Below, in pieces: positions 61,192 to 64,000 of a stretch of 64,000 nucleotides of DNA; the first letter of the stretch is position 1, and the number at the start of each line of letters is the position of its first letter. Position numbers and translations under genes: made by a program. Origin of the DNA: a virus (Duplodnaviria; Caudoviricetes); the IMG/VR virus record IMGVR_UViG_3300034197_000017, positions 1-64,000 of that record, one strand, 5' to 3'. The notes beneath the pieces were generated by a model. It made no database searches, was not told where the DNA came from, and saw only the letters and a list, made by a program, of their open reading frames with translations.

Positions 61192-61696
61192 AGATAAGAT
61201 GGTACGGCTACTTGAACTTCTAGATAATGGAGTTCAACCTATCATTCGATGGGTAAAAAATGATTACTATTCTATTGAGGAGTGTGATGCTTACTCTGTC
61301 TCAATGCTTTGTAAAGTTACTCGATATTCTACTTTACCTCCTATATTCGATGGAGATATCCTATATAGAGTCTATACTGATTTTTCAGAGTTTGAGTCAT
61401 ATAATATAGCCATTTCTAACCAATTCTATACTGGAGAGTATCCACAATGGCATGAAACATCTACTTATCCTGAAGATAAGAAATACACTGTCTATATGCA
61501 GGTATCAGGAGAAGAATCCCCTGATGAATCATCTGGATGTATGTTTGAGTTTGTAGAAACAGAATCATTAACCACATTTGATGAGTATAAGAAATCCAAC
61601 TCATCCGAATCTTATATTTCGTGGTTAGAAGGTATGACTATTCAACATCTTAATTTAGTTAGAGGTTTAATTGACGTTATCACTTCTGAGATTTAA
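61178..61696 (+). CDS. hypothetical protein, tandem paralogue 1
   Basis: PIIRW...E..Y.V.M.C...TDFSEFE.YN...WHE...YP.D...SSGCMFEFV...YI.WLE. Confidence 0.75.
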   Translation: MNENKDKMVRLLELLDNGVQPIIRWVKNDYYSIEECDAYSVSMLCKVTRYSTLPPIFDGDILYRVYTDFSEFESYNIAISNQFYTGEYPQWHETSTYPEDKKYTVYMQVSGEESPDESSGCMFEFVETESLTTFDEYKKSNSSESYISWLEGMTIQHLNLVRGLIDVITSEI

Positions 61697-61702
61697 TTTA
61701 TC

Positions 61703-62209
61703 ATGAACGATAATTATACTAAAATGTCTGCTCTAATTGAGTATCTAAAGACAGGATGTTCTCCTATAATTAGATGGATTGACCCTTTTATTGAAGAGTT
61801 TGAATCCTATGATGTAGGTATGATATGTAGAGCTATAGGAATCAAAGAAACTGATTTTGCTCTCAAATCTTCAGGTATAGTTATTTACGGAATAACTACA
61901 GATTTTAGTGAGTTTGAAGAATACAATAAATCTATAGCTAAAGAAACTTGGAATTACTCATCTGATGATTCAAGCAAACAATTTGTTAAATGGCATGAAT
62001 CTTCTTTTTATCCTAAAGATAGAAGAGAGGTTATATATTTACAGTTAGCAGAAGAATTTTCAGGGGAGAAATCATCTGGATGTATGTTTGAATTTGTGAA
62101 TACATCTTCTCTAAGTGTGTTTGAGAAATATAAAGAATCAAAGACAGAATTACCTTATGTCGCATGGTTAGAAAAAGCAGTCTTTGATTCAGATATTTAT
62201 TTTAACTAA
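61703..62209 (+). CDS. hypothetical protein, tandem paralogue 2
   Basis: Same motif order as 61178..61696. Confidence 0.75.
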   Translation: MNDNYTKMSALIEYLKTGCSPIIRWIDPFIEEFESYDVGMICRAIGIKETDFALKSSGIVIYGITTDFSEFEEYNKSIAKETWNYSSDDSSKQFVKWHESSFYPKDRREVIYLQLAEEFSGEKSSGCMFEFVNTSSLSVFEKYKESKTELPYVAWLEKAVFDSDIYFN

Positions 62210-62226
62210 TCTTTATACTTTTGTAG

Positions 62227-62255
62227 TTGACATTTAGATTTAGTTTAGATAGACT
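62227..62255 (+). promoter_or_regulatory. sigma70-type promoter of the RNA cluster
   Basis: TTGACA (62227), 17 nt, TAGACT (62250). Confidence 0.75.
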
Positions 62256-62386
62256 GATAAAGTAAACCTCGTTGAAGGGTTAATCAAAACTAGGGAAAAA
62301 CATCTATTATCGTTGAAAGCCAAAATTGTTATATAGCTAGTTAGAAAATATAGATTTATATAATTTAGCTAGCTTTTCTACACCTA

Positions 62387-62474
62387 GCGGGTAAGAACCA
62401 GCGTTCAGAGGAGCCTTATAAACTCTTTGCTCCAGATTAGAGCCTTTGGGATGGGGCAGCACCATCTACCCGTA
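62387..62474 (+). tRNA. non-canonical tRNA-like RNA, anticodon UAU (Ile?), long variable arm
   Basis: Acceptor GCGGGTA/TACCCGT; mini D arm AAC-CAGC-GTT; anticodon loop CTTATAA; V arm GCTC-CAGATTA-GAGC; T arm GATGG-GGCAGCA-CCATC. Confidence 0.6.
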
Positions 62475-62481
62475 TAGCACT

Positions 62482-62529
62482 AGACGGTACTGGCTTAGTA
62501 AGATAGAGTTCGCCTACTATCACCGTTTA
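62482..62529 (+). ncRNA. minihelix-like RNA (acceptor stem plus T-arm-like hairpin)
   Basis: AGACGGT/ACCGTTT 7-bp stem enclosing ACT-GGCTT-AGT and GATAG-AGTTCGCCTA-CTATC. Confidence 0.35.
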
Positions 62530-62539
62530 CTGCTAATTA

Positions 62540-62707
62540 ACTTGGTTGAGGGCTTAGGCTAAAACTCTTCCAAGTAAAGTGAGAGTCTTTAATGACTCAA
62601 CCCTCTTACAGGGGATATAAACTATAGGTGTAAGTAACTATAGATGTTATGGAAAGCTACCTACCAGACTTAGGTGATACGTAGAGTATCAATAATGAGA
62701 CTTTCCA
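62540..62707 (+). ncRNA. structured non-coding segment
   Basis: Consecutive stems ACTTGG/CCAAGT, GAGTC/GACTC, CCCT/AGGG, CTATAG/CTATAG, and a TGGAAAG/CTTTCCA junction with two inner hairpins; no ORF. Confidence 0.4.
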
Positions 62708-62750
62708 CTAAACCCGCTCTAGTAGCTCAGATGGATAGAGCAATTGCCTT

Positions 62751-63403
62751 CAATTGGAGCTTTTATAGCGAAACAAAAGCTATAAAATGCACAGCGCTAT
62801 ATCGGTGAAACCTTAACAGTTAGGCTGATGGTAATACCGAGGAAACTGACCAACAAATTACCCGTATGTTAGTGTTGTATAATAAAACTATATTTATAGT
62901 TTCTTTTATGCATCATTTTACAAAAAACAAAGGGGATTTAGGTGTATTAAAGGTAAAGGCAGATTTAGTATCTAAAGGCTATACTGTAGGCTCTTTGGAT
63001 ACCGAACATAGTCCTTTTGATGTGGTGACGTATAGAAACCAAGAATTCAAACGAATTCAAGTTAAATACCGTTCACTAAGGAAAGGGAAGTTAGAGATAC
63101 GTTTTTCTTCTAGCTGGGCTGATAAACACGGTTCCCATGTTCGGTTTGTAGATAAATCAGAAATTGACGTATATGCAGTATACTGTCCCGAAACAGATTG
63201 CTGCTATTATTTTAATCCTTCTGACTACAAAAAAAGTTTGACTTTGAGAGTAAATGCATCTCTAAATAATCAGCAGCAAAATATACACAACGCTGATGAT
63301 TTTAGACAGGTTCCGTAGAGACTACACGCGTTGCACCTGTAATGGTGAAGATATAGTCCAGACCACAAACGTTTATGACGGTAACTAAAGTTATAGTGGT
63401 ACG
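62751..63403 (+). mobile_element. group I self-splicing intron (653 nt)
   Basis: P1 CUU|C-AAUU-GGAG with U.G at the splice site; P2 TTTTATAGC/GCTATAAAA; core elements ATATCGGTGAAA, AATACCGAG, AGAGACTACACG, AAGATATAGTCC; terminal G at 63403; P10 TTGG/CTAA. Confidence 0.92.
62866..63318 (+). CDS. intron-encoded PD-(D/E)XK homing endonuclease (I-Ssp6803I-like); start may be ATG 62908
   Basis: KGDLG...YTV...SPFDVV...RIQVKYR...DVYAVY...CYYF pattern; located in the P6 loop, with its TAG overlapping the P6/P7 junction. Confidence 0.88.
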   Translation: MLVLYNKTIFIVSFMHHFTKNKGDLGVLKVKADLVSKGYTVGSLDTEHSPFDVVTYRNQEFKRIQVKYRSLRKGKLEIRFSSSWADKHGSHVRFVDKSEIDVYAVYCPETDCCYYFNPSDYKKSLTLRVNASLNNQQQNIHNADDFRQVP

Positions 63404-63441
63404 CTAAGCAATCGGTCACAGGTTCAAGTCCTGTCTAGAGC

Positions 63442-63533
63442 GCTGTACCTAGACGTAGGTGCAAAACCATTTAGTAAAAGTAGAAGTGGTTTCAGGCACA
63501 TTGCCTATGAGGTTCGACTCCTCACTACCAGCG
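63442..63533 (+). ncRNA. degenerate tRNA-like element
   Basis: T arm TGAGG-TTCGACT-CCTCA; V arm AGGCA/TGCCT; 9-bp AAACCATTT/AAGTGGTTT stem with 11-nt loop; mini D hairpin CCTA/TAGG; imperfect acceptor. Confidence 0.45.
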
Positions 63534-63587
63534 TATTACCGGAAACGCTACTAAGTGATAGTGAGTACATTGCTGAAGCTAGACTAG

Positions 63588-63845
63588 GTGATGTATTCAC
63601 TGCCAACCTTAATATCCATAGGAGATGACTACATGACTGTATATGATGCGCTAGAAAACCTATCTGCCTTAGCTCAAAAAGGATATGGAAATATGGAGTT
63701 AGTTAATGTAGATTTAATCTTTGGGTACTCTACTCCAGTAGCTATTTATCAGGATATCTCTACAGCAAATCCTAAAACAGACTCTGGCTATTTACGTACT
63801 GTTGGAGAAGGTCAAGTATTCGTTCCTGTACAGTTTGAATATTAA
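63588..63845 (+). CDS. hypothetical protein (start probably internal MTVYD)
   Basis: GGAG RBS before the internal ATG. Confidence 0.6.
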   Translation: MMYSLPTLISIGDDYMTVYDALENLSALAQKGYGNMELVNVDLIFGYSTPVAIYQDISTANPKTDSGYLRTVGEGQVFVPVQFEY

Positions 63846-63854
63846 ATTAACTTT

Positions 63855-64000
63855 ATGAGCATTAAAAGAGTTTCCCTTCCTATAATTATATTAGTAAAGC
63901 AGCAAGATATTCCTATTGAACGTCTTAATCCTGACAACGTAACTGTAGAATATGACTATACATTTGACCGTCATATTATTGAAGCAATTCATAGAGTAGC
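63855..64000 (+). CDS. hypothetical protein (partial, runs off window end)
   Basis: ATG at 63855, open to the end: MSIKRVSLPIIILVKQQDIPIERL... Confidence 0.55.
   Translation, partial: MSIKRVSLPIIILVKQQDIPIERLNPDNVTVEYDYTFDRHIIEAIHRV

Follow-up and report, generated by a model that had tools for sequence, protein, structure and literature searches.

A tRNA-Arg(UCU) gene split by a group I intron with an endonuclease-like reading frame in a cyanophage-like genome

The window analyzed here (positions 1 to 64,000 of the IMG/VR virus record IMGVR_UViG_3300034197_000017, 64,000 nt in all) is part of an 83.7-kb record assembled from a peat metagenome. Close to its end, at 62716-63442, lies a tRNA-Arg(UCU) gene that is interrupted by a group I intron, and this intron contains an open reading frame (ORF) for a predicted PD-(D/E)XK nuclease. 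A preliminary description of the same DNA had named these elements and treated their combination as apparently novel. The locus comprises the following features.

62716-62750, + strand: 5′ exon of tRNA-Arg(UCU), 35 nt, with acceptor strand, D arm, 5′ anticodon stem, and C32, U33, and U34
62751-63403, + strand: group I intron, IC3-like, 653 nt, ending in omega-G63403; assigned from a sub-gathering RF00028 match, covariance model R1, and covariation
62876-62883, + strand: extended −10-like motif TGTATAAT, 25 nt upstream of the ORF start, read from the sequence
62908-63318, + strand: predicted homing endonuclease ORF, 136 aa, PD-(D/E)XK type of the I-Ssp6803I family, motif D38 ... Q51-V-K53, with its TAG stop (63316-63318) in J6/7
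63404-63442, + strand: 3′ exon of tRNA-Arg(UCU), 39 nt, with C35, U36, A37, and A38, 3′ anticodon stem, variable loop, T arm, acceptor strand, and discriminator G

The split gene, its ribozyme, and the encoded protein

Joining the two exons regains a cloverleaf with canonical stems and anticodon loop, which ARAGORN identifies as tRNA-Arg(tct) and in which all stems are Watson–Crick paired; the exon reconstruction given in the preliminary description is exact to the nucleotide. The 5′ exon ends in CUU and the 3′ exon starts with CUAA, placing the insertion between nucleotides 34 and 35, and the exon end ..GCCUU is also found in 60 or more homologous split genes. CCA is not encoded, and the variable loop consists of 5 nt. 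With default settings, ARAGORN reported no tRNA in the whole window; when introns were allowed, it detected the gene, shifted the junction 1 nt early, and called Ser(gct).

Between the exons lies a group I intron resembling the IC3 type of bacterial tRNA genes, with all helices P1 to P9 paired. Intron nucleotide n corresponds to window position 62750+n, and intron numbers are given in brackets in the list of its elements.

62754-62759, + strand: internal guide, with UUG as the P10 partner of CUA in the 3′ exon (two of three pairs) and, after it, GAG as the P1 partner of CUU in the 5′ exon
62761-62787, + strand: P2 hairpin, 9 bp (11-19/29-37), loop GAAAC..., with compensatory changes at 9 of 9 pairs in the family
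62792-62797, + strand: P3 5′ strand, CAGCGC, pairing with GCGUUG at 63328-63333 (42-47/578-583); 5 of 6 pairs covary
62802-62840, + strand: P4-P5-P5a domain, pairs retained in 54 to 63 of 63 sequences
62802-62805/62837-62840, + strand: P4 (52-55/87-90)
62811-62812/62830-62831, + strand: P5 (61-62/80-81)
62817-62819/62825-62827, + strand: P5a (67-69/75-77)
62841-62850, + strand: P6 5′ strand, pairing with 63305-63314 (91-100/555-564); 8 of 10 pairs form here, and the ORF lies in the P6 loop
63320-63358, + strand: catalytic core, with the P7 5′ strand, P3′, P8, J8/7 AAGAUA, and the P7 3′ strand; agrees with the Rfam consensus AGACUA...GAAGAUAUAGUC
63320-63324/63354-63358, + strand: P7 (570-574/604-608), covarying from A-U to U-A, G-C, and C-G in relatives
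63328-63333, + strand: P3′, GCGUUG, the 3′ strand of P3
63334-63347, + strand: P8 hairpin (584-587/594-597)
63362-63400, + strand: P9, 63362-63366/63396-63400 (612-616/646-650), enclosing P9a and P9b
63370-63372/63378-63380, + strand: P9a, covarying in the family
63381-63385/63390-63394, + strand: P9b, loop UAAA, covarying in the family

In P1, exon nucleotides C62748-U62750 pair with G62757-G62759 (intron 7-9), with the wobble U62750·G62757 at the splice site that had been noted earlier. Across 63 distinct relatives, this U·G pair and the C-G pair are kept in all 63, and the middle pair is U-A in 61 and U·G in two. The P10 pairing is also present, but it is weaker than the preliminary description implied: intron UUG (4-6) forms two of three pairs with exon CUA around a central U·U mismatch, and most relatives have UAG/CUA. 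Over the whole structure, nearly every proposed pair is kept among the 63 sequences, and compensatory double changes occur at 35 of 64 pairs. Where the window copy departs from the bacterial consensus in P2, P3, P9a, and P9b, the changes are compensatory, with two double changes in P3 relative to CGACAC/GUGUCG; within P6, the nonpair A95×G560 is conserved in the family. The last intron nucleotide, omega-G63403 (intron 653), stands immediately before exon CUAAGC. The conserved core and terminal G of the original proposal are therefore borne out, with P2 to P9 all present. The IC3 label is given by resemblance, namely the compact P4-P5-P5a domain, the P2 loop starting GAAA, and the tRNA site. 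This subgroup has a compact core lacking the P5abc extension and GNRA loops on P2 and P9 that dock into receptors; the L9 loop reads UAAA here and in contig L258 and GAAA in most relatives.

Covariance searches agree with this assignment. Model R1, constructed from 20 ORF-less family members with the window copy excluded, matched 62743-62962 (84.8 bits, E 8e-26) and 63197-63411 (103.8 bits, E 6e-32) and nothing else in the window. The Rfam group I search proposed in the preliminary description gave a divided result: a permissive scan aligned RF00028 with the canonical AGACUA...GAAGAUAUAGUC core (E 0.008), but its 21.7 bits lie below the gathering score.

The ORF sits between the P6 strands 62841-62850 and 63305-63314, and its last codons and TAG stop overlap P6′ and J6/7 (CCGUAG), so that the same nucleotides encode the C-terminal invariant proline and the stop and form part of the ribozyme core. 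Its product matches Pfam PF11645 (PDDEXK_5) over residues 5-134 of 136 with 111.4 bits against a cut-off of 26.1 (E 4.4e-32). The start codon ATG 62908 aligns with the family N-terminus M..HHTKNKGD, and a longer ORF from ATG 62866 was ruled out on that alignment. In a 20-sequence alignment, the protein retains every invariant residue, and its identity to the other 19 sequences is 51 to 66%. The family-invariant residues FD38 and Q51-V-K53 line up with YD and QVK, respectively, in 2OST (I-Ssp6803I). A profile of the 20 homologues reached 2OST in a search of the PDB (E 3.7e-4), which the family profile alone did, as phmmer with the single protein found no PDB match; no NCBIfam family matches the protein either. 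An AlphaFold (AF2) model of the ORF, with a predicted local distance difference test score of 86, gave 2ost_B as its best Foldseek match (template modeling [TM] score 0.76, E 2e-9). The model and profile matches thus point to an I-Ssp6803I-type PD-(D/E)XK nuclease with a restriction-endonuclease-like fold, in keeping with the nuclease placed in the P6 loop from the outset. Upstream, TGTATAAT at 62876-62883 may be an internal promoter for the nuclease; it is not among the sites of a promoter scan that requires a −35 hexamer.

Genomic setting and distribution of the intron family

Pseudanabaena phages Pam2 and PA-SR01 are the nearest cultured relatives. The major capsid protein of the record (at 20 kb) is 54% identical, and its DNA polymerase (at 81 kb) 44% identical, to the proteins of both phages, and the G + C content is uniform along the record at about 35%. 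Because these two genes flank the tRNA island on both sides and the composition is uniform, the island lies inside a cyanophage-like genome. One Logan contig covers the whole 2.5 kb of 61500-64000 without any difference. Contigs of two peat-metagenome DNA runs contained no joints and no intron-less form of the locus, and the locus found no match in Pam2 or PA-SR01.

A second split tRNA gene lies 5 kb downstream, at 67710-68547 of the record (L002:770-1607): a tRNA-Leu(UAA) whose group I intron (756 nt, inserted after U34) contains a 195-aa HNH_3 ORF and has an R1 match of 46 bits. The Leu and Arg introns have in common a 25-nt core stretch that is 96% identical, and an uninterrupted tRNA-Met(cat) stands between the two split genes (65785-65859, outside the window). 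AGA makes up 66% of arginine codons in the phage, in line with the earlier remark that AGA is very common, and UUA 43% of leucine codons; both split tRNAs therefore decode preferred codons. After the Arg gene, at 63455-63556, is a T-arm-like element (GAGGTTCGACTCCTC) with a weak tRNA-Sec match (16 bits); ARAGORN finds no complete tRNA there, and it could be a noncanonical or fragmentary tRNA. The best promoter-like site of the region (62227-62255; TTGACA, 17 nt, TAGACT) comes shortly after the end of an ORF at 62209 and precedes the RNA-rich stretch; such sites are no more numerous than in shuffled sequence.

The intron belongs to a family with many members. An exact 16-mer spanning J8/7-P7 occurs in at least 117 viral contigs, and at least 120 species genomes contain a 17-mer that runs from P9 through omega-G into the 3′ exon. 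After filtering, at least 81 loci are tRNA-Arg(UCU) genes split at the identical position, and 63 distinct sequences among them were used for covariation. The same-site intron, preceded by CUU and ending in G before CUAA, has representatives in at least about 80 species genomes of bacteria and in no fewer than 10 viral contigs, so the survey of homologous introns foreseen in the preliminary description turned up a sizable set, several members of which carry a P6 nuclease. The bacterial carriers are from the Bacillota (including the Bacillus cereus group), Bacteroidota, Chloroflexota, and Gammaproteobacteria. They include many Bacillaceae, Lysinibacillus, Exiguobacterium, Paenibacillus, and relatives of Thermoactinomycetes, as well as Chitinophagales, Cytophagales, Caldilineales, Marinomonas, and Piscirickettsiaceae-like metagenome-assembled genomes. 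Most bacterial members are ORF-less and 213 to 290 nt long. The intron is sporadic in the B. cereus-group genus, with 19 carriers among 71 species representatives, in contrast to a 2008 survey of 29 genomes that reported the B. cereus group to be without tRNA introns (PMC2504315). Four B. cereus-group species genomes (L131, L145, L165, and L190) have group I introns of 284 to 288 nt in tRNA-Arg(UCU).

The full arrangement of tRNA-Arg(UCU), intron, and PD-(D/E)XK ORF in P6 recurs in phage-like contigs L242, L254, and L255, in contig L258, and in bacterial contigs L146, L189, L224, L256, and L257; L222, L086, and L194 hold decayed nuclease remnants or broken ORFs. We found 414 nuclease homologues at E ≤ 1e-5, some of which NCBI names group I intron-associated PD-(D/E)XK endonuclease. 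All six of the closest homologues whose contigs were inspected sit inside tRNA-Arg(UCU) introns, and three of these six contigs are phage-like, with tRNA clusters or cyanophage marker genes. In viral contigs L024, L103, and L104, the same Arg(UCU) ribozyme has an HNH gene starting in P1-P2 in place of the PD-(D/E)XK ORF in P6, and in L026 only an HNH remnant (MWKISEIVSK...) is left. This pattern points to independent invasions of one ribozyme by HNH and PD-(D/E)XK endonucleases. The nearest nuclease relatives in cultured phages are free-standing, 22 to 68 bp behind an intact tRNA-Arg(tct): those of Synechococcus phage Sf-FR1 (L240, 1351-1926) and Acinetobacter phage Herod (L241, 1106-1641) are 50% and 39% identical, respectively. 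By their position, they look like a form of homing without an intron that uses the same target gene.

Split phage tRNAs may extend beyond Arg and Leu, judging from viral loci with the same core 16-mer. When introns were allowed, ARAGORN calls at these loci included Phe (L005, L066, and L110), Ile (L050, L079, and L114), Lys (L071), Gln (L105), SeC (L023, L064, L082, and L115), and Stop (L103). At least two of the calls are wrong, L071 and L103 being tRNA-Arg(UCU) by their junctions, and some calls are probably one base off. In the Bacillota contig L256 (2332-4286), a phage-type integrase gene lies directly behind the intron-bearing tRNA-Arg(UCU), which may also be an integration site.

Some searches returned little. 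A peptide-pattern search with the nuclease yielded no loci in viral contigs, and blastn of the locus against cultured phages gave only a 73-nt core match (LR756508.1). Among 401 sampled cyanobacterial genomes, blastn detected no tRNA-Arg(UCU) intron, only fMet introns and intact tRNA-Arg(tct), a result that applies to this sample at blastn sensitivity and is not proof of absence.

The feature is thus real, but its family is large, poorly annotated, and present in many bacteria and phages. The novelty claimed for the combination does not hold: a passage in Flood et al. (PMC4853749) cites interrupted tRNA-Arg-TCT genes, so that an intron in this isoacceptor is not new, and the same intron, with and without the nuclease, is widespread. 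According to that passage, the group I introns in tRNA-Arg-TCT of Beggiatoa and Thiomargarita were reported by MacGregor in 2013. For phages, Hausner et al. stated in 2014 that every intron then known lay in a protein-coding gene, although phages have many tRNA genes (PMC3984707), and our literature search found no paper that describes a phage tRNA gene with a group I intron. The authors of tRNAscan-SE 2.0 state that group I introns are not detected. As a class, group I introns in phage tRNA genes appear to be under-described and missed by standard tools.

Splicing, homing, and alternative explanations

We consider it highly probable that the locus is a mobile, splicing-competent group I intron whose removal leaves a useful tRNA-Arg(UCU) and whose spread is driven by endonuclease homing; splicing, the activity and target of the nuclease, and homing are what we infer from its sequence. 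The steps can be drawn from the established group I pathway. The split gene would be transcribed into a 727-nt precursor, in which the intron would fold into P1 to P9 while the tRNA anticodon stem keeps both exons together. An external guanosine would attack after U62750, at the U·G pair of P1, and the freed 5′ exon would then attack after omega-G63403. The product, after CCA addition, would be a 74-nt tRNA reading AGA and AGG, the main arginine codons of the phage. The nuclease encoded in P6 would most likely cut intron-less tRNA-Arg(UCU) genes across the DNA of the anticodon stem-loop, and copying of the intron-bearing allele during repair would then pass on both the intron and the phage markers beside it. 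Targets for such homing are plentiful, because matches to an intron-less tRNA-Arg(UCU) are present in 1424 phage records (the nearest, in T4-like cyanophages, 95% identical) and intact alleles exist in cyanobacteria too. Homing into co-infecting phages or the host, and a role in phage–phage interference, are plausible on these grounds, with the free-standing nuclease relatives of Sf-FR1 and Herod as further context.

Several observations weigh against this interpretation. No RNA run containing the stretch is listed among the public runs checked. A scan of the whole window at Rfam gathering thresholds gave no match, RF00028 scoring 21.7 against 50 bits. The central U·U mismatch of P10 is a small departure from the expected pairing, and an L9 loop of UAAA in place of a GAAA tetraloop could weaken a tertiary contact, though L258 has UAAA too. 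No Shine–Dalgarno sequence is evident upstream of the ORF. The Rfam score appears to be a property of the model and the family and not a sign of decay, because the shortest ORF-less relative (L207:5865-6067) reaches 37.9 bits with RF00028, also below the cut-off.

Three of these points, the P10 mismatch, the non-GNRA L9 loop, and the sub-threshold Rfam score, would also suit a decaying, splicing-defective relic, in which case the gene is a tRNA pseudogene and the phage relies on the tRNA-Arg(UCU) of its host; degenerate relatives with broken ORFs do exist elsewhere (L086, L222, and L194). We judge this improbable, since all core helices are intact, the differences from relatives in P2, P3, P9a, and P9b are compensatory, the exons are perfect, the full-length ORF keeps every residue that is invariant in the family, and AGA is the main arginine codon of the phage.

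The intron might instead splice while its nuclease no longer mobilizes it or acts mainly as a maturase, leaving only vertical inheritance in the phage lineage. In bacteria, the endonuclease gene of a group I intron is often lost or inactivated (PMC2504315), and the bacterial members of this family are mostly short and ORF-less. Little likelihood attaches to this alternative, however, given an intact ORF with 51 to 66% identity to its relatives, the location of all six inspected close homologues in tRNA-Arg(UCU) introns, and a sporadic spread that fits mobility, with 19 carriers among the 71 species of the B. cereus-group genus and none among the nearest cultured phages.

That the tRNA island is host DNA, as a prophage flank or an assembly chimera, has in its favor an integrase on the contig. 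The genes of tRNAs are common attachment sites. Homologues of Pam2 and PA-SR01 on both sides, at 20 kb and 81 kb, the even G + C content of about 35%, and the single Logan contig over 61500-64000 leave this account with almost no credence. The tRNA-Ser(GCU) call of ARAGORN, with the intron one base earlier, was dropped as scarcely credible, because the intron would then end in C and lose its terminal G, a 5-nt variable loop is unlike the long variable arm of bacterial tRNA-Ser, and ARAGORN itself gives Arg(tct) for homologues. Given the intact core, exons, and ORF, the relic, immobile-intron, Ser(GCU), and host-DNA explanations are all much less likely than a functional mobile intron.

Taken alone, such a locus would be an ordinary, well-preserved mobile tRNA intron; its wider meaning lies in the family, as metagenomic viral contigs commonly carry group I introns in phage tRNA genes. 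Because the Rfam gathering cut-off, default ARAGORN, and, as its authors state, tRNAscan-SE miss this family, phage and bacterial tRNA sets seem to be without tRNA-Arg(UCU) when the gene is present. Phage genomes and viral contigs show three arrangements at this gene: the intron with a PD-(D/E)XK ORF, the same ribozyme with an HNH gene, and a free-standing nuclease behind an intact tRNA-Arg(UCU). One speculative reading, which we regard as rather doubtful, is that phage tRNA-Arg(UCU) is a contested homing site, with the three arrangements competing for the same 20 to 30 bp of anticodon stem-loop DNA. If this is so, the intron would shield the tRNA gene of its carrier from cleavage and enable the carrier to convert the tRNA islands of cyanophages infecting the same cell, phages would be the vehicle that took the intron family across bacterial phyla, and the 2014 statement confining phage group I introns to protein-coding genes would be overturned. 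A nuclease clade that is both intron-borne and free-standing beside the same tRNA would offer a natural system for studying how introns and endonucleases assemble and compete. Such nucleases may also shape the inheritance of phage tRNA islands, which recent work has linked to escape from tRNA-cleaving defenses (PMC13096335).

Relation to known systems

Among the closest counterparts are the bacterial and viral tRNA-Arg(UCU) introns described above, which share the identical site and a homologous ribozyme (R1) and in several cases the same P6 nuclease. They differ in that most bacterial copies are ORF-less and that L024, L103, and L104 carry an HNH gene from P1-P2. In Beggiatoa (BOGUAY) and Thiomargarita nelsonii, as the passage in PMC4853749 describes them, tRNA-Arg-TCT is interrupted by a putative group I intron and tRNA-Leu-TAA is interrupted in the same genome, the same pair as in the phage. 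Those genes are on bacterial chromosomes, and the likeness is one of description, not of compared sequences.

The tRNA-fMet intron of Synechocystis PCC 6803 with I-Ssp6803I (2OST) is likewise a bacterial-type group I intron in an anticodon loop that encodes a PF11645 nuclease of roughly 140 to 150 aa. The resemblance extends to the fold (TM score 0.76), the aligned D...QVK motif, and the P8-P9 ribozyme region, which is about 75% identical in cyanobacterial fMet introns. In contrast, that system occupies fMet and not Arg(UCU), its protein is about 16% identical, and its carrier is a cyanobacterial chromosome rather than a phage. The cyanobacterial and plastid tRNA-Leu(UAA) IC3 intron shares insertion after U34, a 5′ exon ending in CUU, and a 3-bp P1, but it interrupts another tRNA, and the classical Leu intron has no ORF; the split tRNA-Leu(UAA) downstream in the phage holds an intron of this kind. 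Finally, the nuclease SegB of phage T4 causes a phage tRNA region to be inherited preferentially (PMC2330249, PMC13096335). It belongs to the GIY-YIG family and has no intron; it is free-standing in a tRNA cluster, and relatives of the present nuclease are free-standing in Sf-FR1 and Herod.

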